Virus record (IMG/VR): IMGVR_UViG_2636415418_000002
Strand: one strand, 5' to 3'
Length of the DNA stretch: 5,273 nt
From: a virus
Lineage: Duplodnaviria > Heunggongvirae > Uroviricota > Caudoviricetes
Positions within the stretch are counted from its first letter, which is position 1. Each line of letters opens with the position of its first letter. Shown in pieces: positions 163-4,657 of the stretch. The notes beneath the pieces were generated by a model, which ran no database searches, was not told the DNA's origin, and was given only the letters and a program-made list of their open reading frames with translations. The position numbers and the translations under genes were made by a program.

Positions 163-168
163 GTTCAG

Positions 169-196
169 ACCCGGCCACCGTGCCGGGTTTTCTTTT
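169..196 (+). terminator. Rho-independent terminator (6-bp all-GC stem CCCGGC/GCCGGG, 6-nt loop, TTTTCTTTT tail)
   Basis: Seen directly: stem 170-175 pairs with 182-187, followed immediately by a T-tract at 188-196. It sits 7 nt after the stop of the upstream CDS. The reverse complement lacks a T-tract, so it is unidirectional. Confidence 0.75.
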
Positions 197-324: not shown

Positions 325-367
325 AACAACTTATGTTGTTGACGATAATACAACTATAGTTTTAAAT
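325..367 (+). promoter_or_regulatory. Candidate operator/promoter: perfect palindrome AACAAC-TTAT-GTTGTT (325-340) overlapping a -35-like TTGACG (339-344), with a weak -10-like TTAAAT 17 nt downstream (362-367)
   Basis: Hexamers and palindrome read directly from the sequence. The -10 is a poor match (4/6), so this is weak; a 6-bp inverted repeat in an AT-rich region can arise by chance. Confidence 0.15.
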
Positions 368-644: not shown

Positions 645-851
645 ATGGTTCATCAACATTACGGAACGCAGACCGTTAATCGCGGTGCGGTCATGCCAGG
701 AATGCTGGTCAAACACAAAGATGGTACCTGGACTGCATCAGCTAATTTACGCGGACGGCTTTATCTGCATCGCGGCATCGAGCGCACTTATACCCGTGAC
801 TTGCTCGTGGAAGTTTTTCTCGACGGACGCGGCAACGGCCTGAATCACTAA
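645..851 (+). CDS. Hypothetical small basic protein (69 aa), occupying the position that kil/cIII take in lambda
   Basis: ATG at 645 is preceded by AGGAG (635-639) with a 5-nt spacer. Codon choice in this frame (ctg, cgc, ggc, gac, aac) looks enterobacterial, whereas the overlapping 610-843 frame is rich in rare codons. The track start at 441 is a TTG and an in-frame ATG at 561 has only a weak SD, so the true start could be 561. Product not recognised. Confidence 0.4.
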
Positions 852-926: not shown

Positions 927-1223
927 ATGAACGCTTATTACATTCAGGATCGTCTTGAGGCTCAGAGCTGGGCGCGTCACTACCAGCAGATCGCCCGTGA
1001 AGAGAAAGAGGCAGAACTGGCAGACGACATGGAAAAAGGCCTGCCCCAGCACCTGTTTGAATCGCTATGCATCGATCATTTGCAACGCCACGGGGTCAGC
1101 AAAAAAGCCATTACCCGCGCATTTGATGACGATGTTGAGTTTCAGGAGCGCATGGCGGAACACATCCGATACATGGTTGAAACCATTGCTCACCACCAGG
1201 TTGATATTGATTCAGAGGTATAA
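927..1223 (+). CDS. gam: Gam, RecBCD nuclease inhibitor (98-aa short form)
   Basis: The translation [21 protein letters not shown]...[10 protein letters not shown] matches, from memory, the C-terminal 98 residues (GamS) of phage lambda Gam. AGGAG at 915-919 lies 7 nt upstream of the ATG. Position immediately upstream of bet matches lambda synteny. Confidence 0.9.
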
Positions 1224-1228
1224 AACGA

Positions 1229-2014
1229 ATGAGTACTGCACTCGCAACGCTGGCAGGGAAGCTGGCTGAACGTGTCGGCATGGATTCTGTCGACCCACAG
1301 GAACTGATCACCACTCTTCGCCAGACGGCATTTAAAGGTGATGCCAGCGATGCGCAGTTCATCGCATTGTTGATCGTCGCCAACCAGTACGGCCTTAATC
1401 CGTGGACGAAAGAAATTTACGCCTTCCCTGATAAGCAGAACGGCATCGTTCCGGTGGTGGGCGTTGATGGCTGGTCCCGCATCATCAATGAAAACCAGCA
1501 GTTTGATGGCATGGACTTTGAGCAGGACAATGAATCCTGTACATGCCGGATTTACCGCAAGGACCGTAATCATCCGATCTGCGTTACCGAATGGATGGAT
1601 GAATGCCGCCGCGAACCATTCAAAACTCGCGAAGGCAGAGAAATCACGGGGCCGTGGCAGTCGCATCCCAAACGGATGTTACGGCATAAAGCCATGATTC
1701 AGTGTGCCCGTCTGGCCTTCGGATTTGCTGGTATCTATGACAAGGATGAAGCCGAGCGCATTGTCGAAAATACCGCATACACTGCAGAACGTCAGCCGGA
1801 ACGCGACATCACTCCGGTTAACGATGAAACCATGCAGGAGATTAACACTCTGCTGATTGCCCTGGATAAAACATGGGATGACGACTTATTGCCGCTCTGT
1901 TCCCAGATATTTCGCCGCGACATTCGAGCATCGTCAGAACTGACACAGGCCGAAGCAGTGAAAGCTCTTGGATTCCTGAAACAGAAAGCCACTGAGCAGA
2001 AGGTGGCAGCATGA
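1229..2014 (+). CDS. bet: Bet (Red-beta) single-strand annealing protein, 261 aa
   Basis: The translation [66 protein letters not shown]... matches lambda Bet as I recall it, with the same 261-aa length. The stop overlaps the exo start as ATGA, as in lambda. Confidence 0.95.
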
Positions 2015-2691
2015 CACCGGACATTATCCTGCAGCGTACCGGGATCGACGTGAGAGCTGTCGAACAGGGGGATGATGCGTGGCACAAATTACGGCTCGGC
2101 GTCATCACCGCTTCAGAGGTTCACAATGTGATAGCAAAACCCCGCTCCGGAAAGAAATGGCCTGACATGAAAATGTCCTACTTCCACACCCTGCTTGCCG
2201 AGGTTTGCACCGGTGTGGCTCCGGAAGTTAACGCTAAGGCGCTGGCCTGGGGAAAACAGTACGAGAACGACGCCAGAGCCCTCTTTGAGTTCACTTCCGG
2301 CGTGAATGTTATTGAATCCCCGATCATCTATCGCGACGAAAGTATGCGCACCGCCTGCTCTCCCGATGGTTTATGCAGTGACGGCAATGGCCTTGAGCTG
2401 AAATGCCCGTTTACCTCCCGGGATTTCATGAAGTTCCGGCTCGGTGGTTTCGAGGCCATAAAGTCGGCTTACATGGCCCAGGTGCAGTACAGCATGTGGG
2501 TGACGCGAAAAGATGCCTGGTACTTTGCCAACTATGACCCGCGTATGAAGCGTGAAGGCCTGCATTATGTCGTGGTTGAGCGGGATGAAAAGTACATGGC
2601 GAGTTTTGACGAGATGGTGCCGGAGTTCATCGAAAAAATGGACGAGGCACTGGCTGAAATTGGTTTTGTATTTGGGGAGCAATGGCGATGA
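2011..2691 (+). CDS. exo: Exo (Red-alpha) 5'-3' dsDNA exonuclease, 226 aa
   Basis: The translation [40 protein letters not shown]... matches lambda exonuclease as I recall it, with the same 226-aa length. The gam-bet-exo order is the lambda Red arrangement. Confidence 0.95.
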
Positions 2692-2846
2692 CGCATCCTC
2701 ACGATAATATCCGGGTAGGCGCGATCACTTTCATCTACTCCGTTACAAAGCGAGGCTGGGTATTTCCCGGCCTTTCTGTTATCAGAAATCCACTGAAAGC
2801 ACAGCGGCTGGCTGAGGAGATAAATAATAAACGGGGGGCTGTATGA
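2688..2846 (+). CDS. Small hypothetical protein (52 aa), positional equivalent of lambda orf60a
   Basis: Not in the ORF track. Hand translation gives [52 protein letters not shown]. Its ATG overlaps the exo stop (ATGA at 2688-2691) and its stop overlaps the next gene's ATG (ATGA at 2843-2846). Lambda likewise has a small ORF overlapping the exo stop. Confidence 0.5.
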
Positions 2847-3400
2847 CTGATTTCACCGGAAGCAATACTCCTGCCGAACATCGCGACAGCTGGCGCACAC
2901 CACCAGAGATTTTTGCTGCGCTTAATGCAGAGTTCGTTTTTCAACTTGATGCTGCAGCCAGCGAAAAAAACCGACTATGTCGGCTTTTTATCTCACAGGA
3001 GCAGAACACATTAACCACTTCATGGCCTGAAGCAATGGGATATGCCTCTGGTTATGTCTGGTTGAATCCACCATACAGCAATATTTCCCCTTTTGTGAAA
3101 AAGGCAGCCACTGAAAACAAATTCAGTAGTGTGGGATGTGTAATGTTATTGCCTGCTGACACATCTGTCGGATGGTTTCATGAAGCGATACAAACCGCCA
3201 GTGAGGTCAGATTCATCACGGCAGGACGACTGGCATTTATTAACCCACTCACCGGGAAACCCGTCAGTGGAAATAATAAAGGCTCGATGCTCATTATCTG
3301 GCACCCATACCCCCGTACACACTGCCACTTTACGACCGTTGATCGTGGAGAGTTGATGGCGTTCGGCTCAAGGATTCTTGCCCGTCGGGAGGCTGCATGA
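2843..3400 (+). CDS. Putative phage DNA N6-adenine methyltransferase (small Dam-like orphan MTase), 185 aa
   Basis: Contains the (D/N)PPY catalytic motif in WLNPPYSN, and an N-terminal WRTPPEIFAALNAEFVFQLDAAAS segment that resembles the WxTP...LDxAA signature I associate with the phage 'Dam' methyltransferase family (Pfam PF05869, from memory). No adjacent restriction endonuclease candidate is visible. Confidence 0.75.
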   Translation: MTDFTGSNTPAEHRDSWRTPPEIFAALNAEFVFQLDAAASEKNRLCRLFISQEQNTLTTSWPEAMGYASGYVWLNPPYSNISPFVKKAATENKFSSVGCVMLLPADTSVGWFHEAIQTASEVRFITAGRLAFINPLTGKPVSGNNKGSMLIIWHPYPRTHCHFTTVDRGELMAFGSRILARREAA

Positions 3401-3480
3401 CAACCACGGAATGCATTTTTCTGGCAGCGGGCTTCATATTCTGTGTGCTTATGCTTGCCGACATGGGACTTGTTCAATGA
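3397..3480 (+). CDS. 27-aa hydrophobic micro-protein (single predicted TM helix)
   Basis: Not in the ORF track. Hand translation gives MTTTECIFLAAGFIFCVLMLADMGLVQ*. A strong SD, GGGAGG (3386-3391), lies 5 nt before the ATG. The ATG overlaps the MTase stop and the stop overlaps the orf71 ATG, both as ATGA. Codons (ctg, gcg, ggc, gcc, gac) are better here than in the alternative long frame. Confidence 0.45.
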   Translation: MTTTECIFLAAGFIFCVLMLADMGLVQ

Positions 3481-3692
3481 CACCTCAGCAGGAAAACGCC
3501 CTTCGCAGCATTGCCCGTCAGGCTAATTCTGAAATCAAAAAAGCCAGACAGCAGTTTCCGGATAAAAACGTCGATGACATTTGCCGTAGCGTACTGAAGA
3601 AGCACCGCGAAACGGTAACGCTGATGGGATTCACACCGACTCATTTAAGCCTGGCGATCGGCATGTTAAACGGCGTCTTTAAGGAGCGATGA
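3477..3692 (+). CDS. Hypothetical protein, 71 aa
   Basis: ATG at 3477 overlaps the orf27 stop. Translation is MTPQQENALRSIARQANSEIKKARQQFPDKNVDDICRSVLKKHRETVTLMGFTPTHLSLAIGMLNGVFKER*. The track's 3378 start is a TTG and the in-frame ATG at 3411 lacks an SD and would overlap orf27. Product not recognised. Confidence 0.55.
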   Translation: MTPQQENALRSIARQANSEIKKARQQFPDKNVDDICRSVLKKHRETVTLMGFTPTHLSLAIGMLNGVFKER

Positions 3693-3784
3693 ACATGAAA
3701 AGCAAAATCATCAGGGAGCTACAGGCTCCTTTTTTATTATTCGCATTCACCCTCAAGCGTATTAACCAACAATTCAGGGATTAA
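3689..3784 (+). CDS. Possible 31-aa micro-ORF (uncertain: it contains a terminator-like hairpin)
   Basis: Not in the ORF track. Hand translation gives MNMKSKIIRELQAPFLLFAFTLKRINQQFRD*. Its ATG (3689-3691) overlaps the orf71 stop (3690-3692) as ATGA. A hairpin plus T-tract inside it is the competing explanation for this stretch. Confidence 0.3.
   Translation: MNMKSKIIRELQAPFLLFAFTLKRINQQFRD
3714..3741 (+). terminator. Terminator-like hairpin (GGAGC-tacag-GCTCC) followed by TTTTTTATTATT
   Basis: Seen directly: a 5-bp stem (3715-3719 pairing with 3725-3729), extendable by one G-U pair, then six T at 3730-3735. The stem is short, so this is a weak intrinsic terminator at best. It overlaps the orf31 candidate. 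Confidence 0.3.
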
Positions 3785-3790
3785 TGGAAG

Positions 3791-4009
3791 ATGGCAGACA
3801 TCATTGATTCAGCATCAGAAATCGAAGAATTACAGCGCAATACAGCAATAAAAATGCGTCGTCTGAACCACCAGGTTATATCTGCCACTCATTGTTGTGA
3901 GTGTGGCGATCCCATAGATGAACGAAGACGCCTGGCCGTTCAGGGTTGTCGGACTTGTGCAAGTTGCCAGGAGGAGATCGAACTTAAGAACAAACAATGG
4001 GGATTGTGA
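3791..4009 (+). CDS. TraR/DksA-family C4 zinc-finger protein (probable RNA-polymerase secondary-channel binder), 72 aa
   Basis: The segment CCECGDPIDERRRLAVQGCRTCASCQ shows the CxxC-G-x-P-I-x-E-x-R-R ... CxxC pattern characteristic of TraR/DksA. Its size matches TraR-like proteins of F plasmid and lambdoid phages. Only a weak SD (AGGGA) lies 10 nt upstream. Confidence 0.75.
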   Translation: MADIIDSASEIEELQRNTAIKMRRLNHQVISATHCCECGDPIDERRRLAVQGCRTCASCQEEIELKNKQWGL

Positions 4010-4056: not shown

Positions 4057-4335
4057 ATGTTCAGAATCATTTTTCCTAACACCTGGTACGTCGACCACCA
4101 CGGCACTCCCTGCAAAATCCTGCGTTCTACCCACAACAAAGTTCACTACATCCGAAAAGGCAGAACATGTATCGCCAGCATGTTCCGCTTTAATCATGAC
4201 TTTGAACCTGTGAATAAAGCTGATGCAGATCGGATAGCAGAAGAGATCGAAACGGCAGAACACATTAAGAAGTTACGTGACATGCGTTCAAAAAGCAGAG
4301 GTAACCATGGAATCATACAGCCTCACACTCGATGA
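4057..4335 (+). CDS. Hypothetical protein, 92 aa
   Basis: ATG at 4057 is preceded by GAGG (4046-4049) with a 7-nt spacer. Translation begins MFRIIFPNTWYVDHHGTPCKILRSTHNKVHYIRKGRTCIASMFRFNHDFEPVNKADADRIAEEIETAEHIKKLRDMRSKSRG.... Its 3' end overlaps the xis start by 29 nt. Product not recognised. Confidence 0.5.
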   Translation: MFRIIFPNTWYVDHHGTPCKILRSTHNKVHYIRKGRTCIASMFRFNHDFEPVNKADADRIAEEIETAEHIKKLRDMRSKSRGNHGIIQPHTR

Positions 4336-4657
4336 GGCCTGTCAGTTTCTCAAGATATCCAGACCTACCGCTACCAACTGGATACGAACAGGCCGCCTAC
4401 AGGCAACACGCAAAGACCCCACTAAACTAAAATCTCCTTACCTCACAACACGACAAGCCTGCATTGCGGCTCTTCAGTCTCCGCTGCATACTGTCCAGGT
4501 GAGCGCGGGTGATGGCATAACAGAGGAAAGAAAATGTCACTCTTCCGCAGAGGTGAAATATGGTACGCCAGTTTCACATTGCCGAACGGTAAAAGATTTA
4601 AACAGTCTCTTGGAACAAAGGACAAAAGGCAGGCGACAGAACTCCATGACAAGCTAA
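4307..4657 (+). CDS. xis: Excisionase, P22-type (116 aa)
   Basis: The translation [38 protein letters not shown]... has an excisionase-type winged-helix/HTH N-terminus and resembles phage P22 Xis as I recall it. GAGGT (4298-4302) lies 4 nt before the ATG. It sits immediately upstream of, and overlapping, int. The track start at 4277 has no SD. Confidence 0.8.

Follow-up and report, generated by a model that had tools for sequence, protein, structure and literature searches.

The open reading frame at 3791–4009 of the window, by which we mean the whole stretch of 5273 nucleotides of viral DNA analysed here, very probably encodes an Orf73-type RNA polymerase regulator of the TraR/DksA family that is located in the exo–xis segment of a lambdoid phage or prophage. 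Sequence identity and gene order together identify the gene as the syntenic ortholog of orf73 of phage lambda, the two proteins being 90% identical. For this ortholog, published work already covers family, fold, mechanism and phage-level phenotype, as well as the experiments that were proposed in a preliminary description of this DNA.

The frame is intact from ATG to TGA and encodes a protein of 72 amino acids, MADIIDSASEIEELQRNTAIKMRRLNHQVISATHCCECGDPIDERRRLAVQGCRTCASCQEEIELKNKQWGL, which is identical at 71 of 72 positions to the RefSeq entry WP_000763364.1, annotated as 'TraR/DksA family transcriptional regulator'. The CxxC...CxxC pattern with a GxPIxExRR core that the preliminary description had pointed out is indeed present. 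The zinc-binding motif CxxC-N17-CxxC consists of C35-C-E-C38, 17 residues and C56-A-S-C59, and the core reads G39-D-P41-I42-D-E44-R-R46-R47. With all four ligand cysteines in place, the protein is predicted to bind one zinc. There are six cysteines in total, and C36 and C53 come in addition to the four ligands. In the alignment with TraR, residues C35, C38, C56 and C59 correspond to C37, C40, C58 and C61, and E44, R46 and R47 correspond to E46, R48 and R49. The equivalent of TraR K50 is L48, a non-basic residue. Neither the DxxDxA motif (D3, D6 and A8) nor the extra cysteines C36 and C53 were mentioned in the preliminary description. The features of the window are collected in Table 1.

Table 1. 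Features of the window, in order of position
Feature	Position	Strand	Basis or remark
Terminator-like hairpin, strong	167–190		Closes the preceding gene
Putative pL/oL: two operator-like palindromes and promoter hexamers	326–367	+	
Kil-family gene	645–851	+	
gam	927–1223	+	
bet	1229–2014	+	
exo	2011–2691	+	
DUF1317, orf60a-like gene	2682–2846	+	
Terminator-like hairpin 't1'	2752–2774	+	Terminator scan; same sequence predicted in lambda and Phi24B
Dam-family methyltransferase	2843–3400	+	
27-amino-acid hydrophobic ORF	3397–3480	+	
orf61-family gene	3477–3692	+	
Predicted sigma-70 promoter 'p1' (-35 TCATCA, 3708–3713; -10 TTTTATTAT, 3732–3740)	3708–3740	+	Overlaps t2
Terminator-like hairpin 't2', AGGGAGCTACAGGCTCCT, and T-run	3713–3741 (hairpin 3713–3731)	+	Terminator scan
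AGGGA, Shine-Dalgarno-like	3776–3780	+	10 nt 5' of the orf73-type ATG; same bases in lambda
orf73-type CDS, TraR/DksA-family C4 zinc-finger protein	3791–4009	+	ORF list, PF01258, phrog_54, lambda Orf73 identity
Codons 3–8, DxxDxA motif (D3-I-I-D6-S-A8)	3797–3814	+	Start of the N-terminal helix, read from the translation
Codons 35–59, C4 zinc finger with GDPIDERRR core, C36 and C53	3893–3967	+	Pfam match, TraR alignment
Codons 57–70, predicted C-terminal helix	3959–4000	+	AlphaFold model; the TraR equivalent is 58–73
DUF4222 gene	4057–4335	+	
HTH_17, excisionase-like ORF	4307–4657	+	
Tyrosine integrase	4534 to window end	+	

Membership of the TraR/DksA family is supported by sequence, profile and fold evidence. 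The Pfam family PF01258 (zf-dskA_traR) matches residues 33–64 with 35.2 bits (E = 1.2e-8), the gathering score being 24.9 bits, and no second domain was detected by Pfam within the 72 residues. The PHROGs family phrog_54, 'DksA-like zinc-finger protein', covers residues 1–70 (E = 2.8e-25). A sequence search of the PDB returned significant matches only to E. coli YbiI (PDB entry 2KGO) and to F-plasmid TraR (PDB entries 5W1S and 6N57). YbiI is the top match and covers residues 31–67 only (E = 1.3e-5, or 1.8e-8 with a family profile of 36 relatives), while the TraR chain 5w1s_M aligns to residues 1–69 (E = 6.5e-5, or 5.8e-7 with the same profile). With the NCBIfam model TIGR02419 (C4_traR_proteo) the protein scores 54.6 bits, below the cut-off of 59.7 bits. 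In the control runs lambda Orf73 scores 54.7 bits and F TraR 80.7 bits; since lambda Orf73 also stays below the cut-off, the shortfall is characteristic of the Orf73 group as a whole and not of this particular copy.

Closer identities within the family were rejected. For F-plasmid TraR itself the equivalog NF010268 gives 26.8 versus 108 bits, and the gene belongs to a phage region for recombination and integration, not to a tra operon. For YbiI the equivalog NF008243 gives 42.3 versus 96 bits. DksA proper was rejected on length (72 versus about 151 amino acids) and on the presence of a single N-terminal helix instead of a two-helix coiled coil; among the NCBIfam matches listed at E values up to 1 there is no DksA equivalog.

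An AlphaFold2 model was built on an alignment of 36 sequences and has a mean pLDDT of 74, which corresponds to moderate confidence. The model contains helices at residues 3–30, 44–49 and 57–70, to be compared with the layout of TraR, where an N-terminal helix (2–27) is followed by a globular domain (28–57) and a C-terminal helix (58–73). Foldseek ranks 6n57_M, which is TraR on RNA polymerase, first among the PDB entries (probability 1.00, E = 1.6e-3, TM-score 0.48), and matches 2–9 are DksA, YbiI, DksA2 and the Chlamydia DksA homolog. The TM-score of 0.48 is modest but expected given the large r.m.s.d. published for unbound lambda Orf73, as modelled by AlphaFold, versus polymerase-bound TraR. 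The preliminary description had called the product a TraR/DksA-like zinc-finger protein, which agrees with PF01258, phrog_54, the alignment with TraR and the Foldseek match to 6n57_M; the zinc finger (PF01258, 35.2 bits) and the TraR fold (AlphaFold model, with TraR first in Foldseek) that it suggested looking for are both predicted.

With F-plasmid TraR the protein shares its size (73 amino acids in TraR versus 72), the three-part architecture, a DxxDxA motif at residues 3–8 and the CxxC-N17-CxxC and GxPIxExRR motifs, and action in the secondary channel of RNA polymerase without ppGpp is predicted for the window protein as well. The two differ in most of their residues, 23 of 72 being identical, and in their setting, TraR being encoded in the tra operon and the window protein in a phage early region. 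The window protein furthermore has two extra cysteines and a leucine for K50 of TraR, and the promoters that TraR activates are activated weakly if at all by the lambda ortholog. The resemblance to E. coli DksA lies in a homologous C4 zinc-finger domain and in the acidic DxxDxA tip, which is the counterpart of the coiled-coil tip in DksA, and it is the DksA site on RNA polymerase that is contested by lambda Orf73. DksA is nevertheless a protein of 151 amino acids, and the window protein matches only its C-terminal half. Like TraR, the window protein has no counterparts of the ppGpp-binding residues, and the lambda ortholog works without ppGpp and at a lower concentration than DksA. YbiI has only the zinc-finger core in common with the window protein and is the product of a chromosomal host gene, not of a phage gene.

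The relationship with lambda is much closer. A tblastn search against the lambda genome gives 64 identical residues out of 71 (E = 9e-41) at about 30401–30613, in an unannotated frame between ea22 and orf61. This frame is lambda orf73. In both phages the gene follows an orf61-type gene and precedes xis and int, and the upstream hairpin and the ribosome-binding region are identical. The two proteins share the DxxDxA tip, the positions of all six cysteines, the ERRR core and the leucine at the TraR K50 position, and every residue that has been implicated in function (D3, D6, A8, C35, C38, C56, C59, E44, R46 and R47) is retained in the window protein. Lambda Orf73 has 73 amino acids instead of 72. 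Seven residues differ, comprising V29/A and A49/V as well as five residues in the C-terminal helix (E62, I63, K66, N67 and W70), so that the tail reads EEIELKNKQWGL in the window and EDLELISKQRGSK in lambda. At the nucleotide level there are seven differences in the 180 nucleotides of codons 1–60 and 11 in the 33 nucleotides of codons 61–71, a jump that points to a mosaic junction at about codon 61, in the 3' end of the gene. By codon position, two of the changes fall on position 1, four on position 2 and 12 on position 3. The wider surroundings are not the same: ea22 and ea8.5 follow in lambda, whereas the window has the DUF4222 gene there; lambda carries orf63 where the upstream block of the window has a Dam-type methyltransferase; and the immunity region and the integrase of lambda are of another type than those of the window phage.

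Lambda Orf73 was characterized by Gopalkrishnan et al. (2022) in mBio (PMC9239242). The purified protein competes with DksA for binding to RNA polymerase and inhibits rrnB P1 in a TraR-like manner with an IC50 of about 50 nM in the absence of ppGpp; rpsT P2 is also inhibited, again with no need for ppGpp (PMC9239242). The variants D3N and D6N are much poorer inhibitors in vitro (PMC9239242). In vivo, IPTG-induced lambda Orf73 complements a dksA-null strain on minimal medium and its expression slows the growth of the host, while lysogens with wild-type orf73 give a three- to fourfold higher phage yield than those with D3A/D6A or an in-frame deletion (PMC9239242). The thrABC, argI and rpoH P3 promoters are activated weakly if at all in vitro (PMC9239242). 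Lambda orf73 is expressed from pL at 5–20 min after induction; ribosome profiling together with genetics places it under pL, and the protein is translated and active. Older reports describe lambda orf73 as pro-lysogenic and as lowering the phage yield on infection.

By analogy, these activities are expected to carry over to the window allele. The suggestion in the preliminary description that the protein modulates the host RNA polymerase gains support in this way, through the published behaviour of a 90% identical protein. The ppGpp- and DksA-like effects that it anticipated need to be divided: on the side of the rRNA promoters they are in agreement with the inhibition of rrnB P1 by lambda Orf73, but on the side of the amino-acid promoters they find little support, given the weak activation, if any, of thrABC and argI.

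We next set the roles of individual TraR residues, as taken from the 2019 eLife and 2022 mBio (PMC9239242) papers, beside their conservation in 94 full-length relatives of the window protein. The DxxDxA motif of TraR reaches the region of the polymerase active site, and in the relatives D3 is conserved in 88, D6 in 91 and A8 in 92 of the 94 sequences. The zinc ligands are almost invariant (C35 94/94, C38 92/94, C56 89/94 and C59 86/94). E46, R48 and R49 of TraR contact the rim helices and Si3, and their counterparts E44, R46 and R47 are present in 80, 90 and 92 relatives, respectively. TraR's C-terminal helix contacts the beta lobe–Si1 insertion, and RNA polymerase without Si1 is not regulated by TraR. 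The signature of this helix (Q60, E64, L65, K68, Q69 and G71) is kept in full in the window protein. W70 in the same helix is a minority residue that is found in seven of the 94 relatives, 79 of which have an arginine at this position. K50 of TraR is part of the Si3 interface that is used in activation; across the 94 relatives the equivalent position is never basic and is occupied by Ala, Leu, Val or Gln. This is consistent with the weak activation by lambda Orf73, a link that we infer, and the Orf73 subfamily is probably biased towards inhibition.

The two additional cysteines behave differently in the same alignment. C53 is present in 86 of the 94 relatives while C36 is variable (33/94), and for this reason C53, the fifth cysteine, looks selected rather than accidental. 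For lambda Orf73, the authors speculate that the two extra cysteines (TraR positions 38 and 55) interfere with the globular domain (PMC9239242). C53 could in principle serve, within the run C53-x-x-C56-x-x-C59, as an alternative zinc ligand or as a redox switch by which binding to the polymerase is tuned during oxidative stress, and together with the non-basic K50 position this would set apart a branch of TraR-like regulators that is 'inhibition-only' and stress-gated. We consider this decidedly unlikely; if true, it would fit the hydrogen peroxide-specific overexpression of orf73 and the phenotypes seen in Stx phages.

The genes of the window are all on the + strand and are tightly packed, stop and start codons often overlapping. 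The orf73-type gene is situated between exo and the xis-like gene and directly 3' of the orf61-like gene, as on the lambda map. The neighbouring methyltransferase gene is frameshifted in the closest genome. Upstream of the Kil-family gene, two operator-like palindromes, ACAACTTATGTTGT (326–339) and ACAACTATAGTTTT (350–363), are spaced 24 nt apart and overlap a pair of promoter hexamers that were read by eye, TTGACG (339–344) and TTAAAT (362–367), separated by 17 nt. Over a 19-nt stretch, this operator region shows 95% complementarity to the sequence between cI and cro in a closely related prophage. In 23 kb of this prophage, exact matches to ACAACnnnnGTTKT are confined to the oR region and the putative oL region; the operator pattern with a 6-nt spacer gives no match, and it is the 4-nt spacer that fits. 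We take 339–367 to be the putative early leftward promoter of the window phage and, by likeness to lambda, the orf73-type gene would be expressed from this pL.

Two terminator-like hairpins (2752–2774 and 3713–3731) are located between the putative pL and the orf73-type gene. The second (3713–3741 with its T-run) is identical in lambda and is the 't2' that predictions for lambda and Phi24B place between orf61 and orf73. The p1 hexamers that overlap it are BPROM predictions made for lambda and Phi24B (Bloch et al., 2014), which we located in the window by reading. The scan of the window that gave the hairpins did not pick up p1, the -35 hexamer of which is poor. In lambda, mRNA is lower downstream of t2 (Bloch et al., 2014, Table 4), and in Phi24B the mRNA of orf73 and ea22 is above that of the upstream genes after induction with hydrogen peroxide (Bloch et al., 2014).

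Antitermination was considered as well. Neither the related prophage nor the related isolated phage has an annotated N-type antiterminator. Rfam, fold energy and a BLAST comparison with HK022 revealed no put-like RNA antiterminator in the leader that runs from the putative pL to kil (370–645). Rfam gives no match at E values up to 1 anywhere in the window, the fold energy of the leader is no better than that of shuffled sequences (z = -0.35) and a short-word BLAST against HK022 20000–30000, a stretch that may not include putL, gives chance-level matches only. Within the leader, the 62 nt at 525–586 are 95% identical to phage HK225, where they lie 5' of the kil gene, indicating that this stretch travels with the kil module. 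The placement in an early operon proposed in the preliminary description is in agreement with the shared strand of kil–gam–bet–exo, the orf73-type gene and xis–int and with the oL-like site at 326–367, but the t2 hairpin and the predicted promoter directly upstream of the gene indicate that pL is perhaps not its sole source of transcription.

The gene is widespread. At a nucleotide identity of at least 90% it occurs in 172 phage records, among them lambda-like, Stx-converting and SfI phages, and 3305 of the 5426 complete E. coli genomes (about 61%) carry it, with up to six copies per genome. Isolated, plaque-forming phages are among its carriers. DNA that is 100% identical to the window ORF is present in several unrelated E. 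coli strains, and the listed E. coli copies are all annotated as 'TraR/DksA family transcriptional regulator'. A prophage of E. coli B1S11 is 98.5% identical across the whole window and adjoins a tRNA-Thr gene and proA. The exact form of the W70 tail corresponds to a database cluster of 635 member sequences, and most of the aligned relatives from Enterobacter, Citrobacter and E. coli have an EEIELKNKQ-type tail.

From these data and the published work we propose the following mechanism. Upon inactivation of the repressor, the gene would be transcribed along with kil, gam, bet and exo of the leftward early region, and the predicted promoter just upstream may add to its transcription. The N-terminal helix would then enter E. 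coli RNA polymerase by way of its secondary channel and place the DxxDxA tip (D3, D6 and A8) near the active site, while the zinc-finger globule (C35, C38, C56 and C59, with R46 and R47) would dock against the rim helices of beta-prime and contact with the beta lobe–Si1 insertion would be made by the C-terminal helix. In this position the protein would, without ppGpp, destabilize the open complexes of promoters at which these are intrinsically short-lived, for example those for rRNA and ribosomal proteins. Host ribosome synthesis and growth would slow down, resources would become available for phage development and the burst size would increase. Like lambda Orf73, the window protein probably acts chiefly by inhibition and activates amino-acid promoters only weakly.

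Several other explanations were weighed against this mechanism, and one of them concerns expression rather than the protein. The gene could be transcribed largely from its own promoter p1 (3708–3740), beyond a working terminator (3713–3731), and would then be regulated separately, for example by oxidative stress. Lambda and Phi24B have the same hairpin and the same predicted promoter hexamers, the mRNA levels in lambda (a fall across the hairpin) and in Phi24B (the excess of orf73 and ea22 after hydrogen peroxide) follow the expected direction, and the annotations of the related prophage and phage list no N-type antiterminator. On the other hand, p1 was predicted by BPROM, has a poor -35 and was missed by the scan of the window, and lambda orf73 has been placed under pL. 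We therefore regard expression mainly from p1 as unlikely, although it keeps a real chance of being correct; it touches regulation only and leaves the mechanism of the protein unchanged. Little credence is given to the possibility that the window allele has diverged or weakened, with its recombinant tail (EEIELKNKQWGL for EDLELISKQRGSK of lambda) and W70 altering or losing the Si1 contact, such that another set of promoters is affected or the protein acts poorly. The abrupt rise in nucleotide differences from codon 61 onwards does suggest that the 3' end is of different origin, W70 is rare among the relatives and TraR requires Si1. The signature residues of the C-terminal helix are all retained, though, the EEIELKNKQ-type tail is the majority form and the W70 tail is that of a cluster of 635 members, and identical DNA occurs in several unrelated E. 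coli strains. In TraR the residue at the position aligning with W70 is presumably also aromatic (Y72).

Little credence is likewise given to a main function in deciding between lysis and lysogeny or in blocking the initiation of host replication (the 'bin' phenotype of the lambda orf73–ea22–ea8.5–orf55 block) through a target other than RNA polymerase. Deletion of orf73 in lambda and in Stx phages lowers host survival and lysogenization, which has been read as a pro-lysogenic function, and older work implicates orf73 and its neighbouring genes in inhibiting the initiation of host replication. These effects are phenotypes, however, and can be explained by the transcription mechanism. For the lambda protein, binding to the polymerase and promoter inhibition have been shown in vitro and the dependence on D3 and D6 ties this activity to the phage yield, whereas no alternative target was found and the 72 residues hold no other domain. 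That the frame is a chance ORF, or the decayed remnant of a defective prophage with no functional protein, has practically no likelihood. Prophage genes often decay, and the frameshift in the neighbouring methyltransferase of the closest genome is a case in point, but here the frame is intact, the family signature is complete and the changes relative to lambda fall mostly on the third codon position (12 versus two and four). The same gene is moreover carried by isolated, plaque-forming phages and its lambda ortholog is translated and active. A chance ORF was rejected on the conservation of the sequence and on this codon-position pattern. The interpretation as an Orf73-type regulator of RNA polymerase is thus the one that we retain.

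About 61% of complete E. coli genomes carry the gene, often in multiple copies, so that small prophage-encoded modulators of RNA polymerase of this kind very commonly exert a latent influence on the transcription of host rRNA. Such modulators are also carried by Shiga-toxin phages, the induction of which drives toxin production.

The nucleotide identity between orf73, the gene for the TraR/DksA-family zinc-finger protein, and its lambda counterpart is 96% over codons 1–60 and only 67% over codons 61–71, and the alignment places a mosaic junction inside the 3′ end of the gene (3971–4009). This junction coincides with a switch in the downstream module, which is DUF4222 in the window and ea22/ea8.5 in lambda. 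Two 'extra' cysteines have already been discussed for lambda Orf73. One of them, Cys53 (3947–3949), is kept in 86 of the 94 full-length relatives of the protein, where it forms a CxxCxxC run; the other, Cys36 (3896–3898), is variable and is present in 33 of the 94. Leu48 is the equivalent of Lys50 of F-plasmid TraR, and this position is never basic among the same 94 members of the orf73 subfamily.

Window 326–367 is probably the early leftward operator/promoter region (oL/pL) of the phage. Both operator-like palindromes found here (listed in the table) overlap a promoter-like TTGACG-N17-TTAAAT, and their motif recurs between cI and cro in the prophage of E. coli B1S11 (L001, positions 7233 and 7280), which is 98.5% identical to the window. 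On the way from the putative pL to orf73, xis and int there are two terminator-like hairpins, at 2752–2774 and 3713–3731. No N-type antiterminator is found among the annotated genes from the repressor gene to kil in L001 or in the related isolated phage L003. The 270-nt leader (370–645) gives no Rfam match, its folding energy is not unusual (z = −0.35) and a comparison with 10 kb of HK022 gave no match.

Positions of features in the window
Feature	Position	Remarks
DUF6414-family gene, 3′ end only	within 1–190	followed by a terminator-like hairpin
Operator-like palindromes ACAACnnnnGTTKT	326–339 and 350–363	24 nt apart
Kil-family protein gene, 68 aa	645–851	before gam; phrog_294, E 1.3e-37
Dam-family phage N6-adenine methyltransferase	2843–3400	Pfam PF05869, E 1.8e-56
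Hydrophobic 27-aa ORF, MTTTECIFLAAGFIFCVLMLADMGLVQ	3397–3480	ATGA stop/start overlap at each end
orf61-family gene, full length, 71 aa	3477–3692	ATG at 3477; covers phrog_303 positions 23–93 of 101
Excisionase-like HTH_17 ORF, 116 aa	4307–4657	

The Kil-family protein is longer than lambda Kil (47 aa), has no match in Pfam and is named 'phage encoded cell division inhibitor protein' in RefSeq. Upstream of its gene, a non-coding stretch of 62 nt (525–586) is 95% identical to the sequence preceding kil in HK225, although the neighbouring genes around kil differ in that phage. From this comparison, the stretch and the kil module appear to move together, and the stretch may be the regulatory or translation-initiation region of that module.

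The methyltransferase gene occupies the slot held by orf63 in lambda; it is intact in the window, whereas the annotation of E. coli B1S11, the closest genome match, marks it as frameshifted. The 27-aa ORF, the product of which could be a small membrane peptide, links it to the orf61-like gene. Lambda has this ORF sequence too, in a different frame of its annotated orf61. An A-run at 3537–3542 has six A's in the window and seven in lambda, and as a consequence of the seven A's lambda orf61 (L002, about 3340–3525) ends early. Lambda orf61 may therefore be a frameshift-truncated form of the phrog_303 family. Further downstream, the earliest ATG in the integrase frame (4534) is a putative start that would give an overlap of 124 nt with the excisionase-like ORF; RefSeq places the integrase start further in, at the equivalent of 4579, which would make the xis/int overlap shorter.

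At the other end of the window, the end of the DUF6414-family gene and the hairpin 3′ of it (167–190; strong and intrinsic-terminator-like, with nine pairs and a T-run) have the repressor gene on one side and the putative pL on the other. In lambda this position is taken by rexAB, and given this placement the DUF6414-family gene may be an accessory or defence gene that is expressed in the lysogen.
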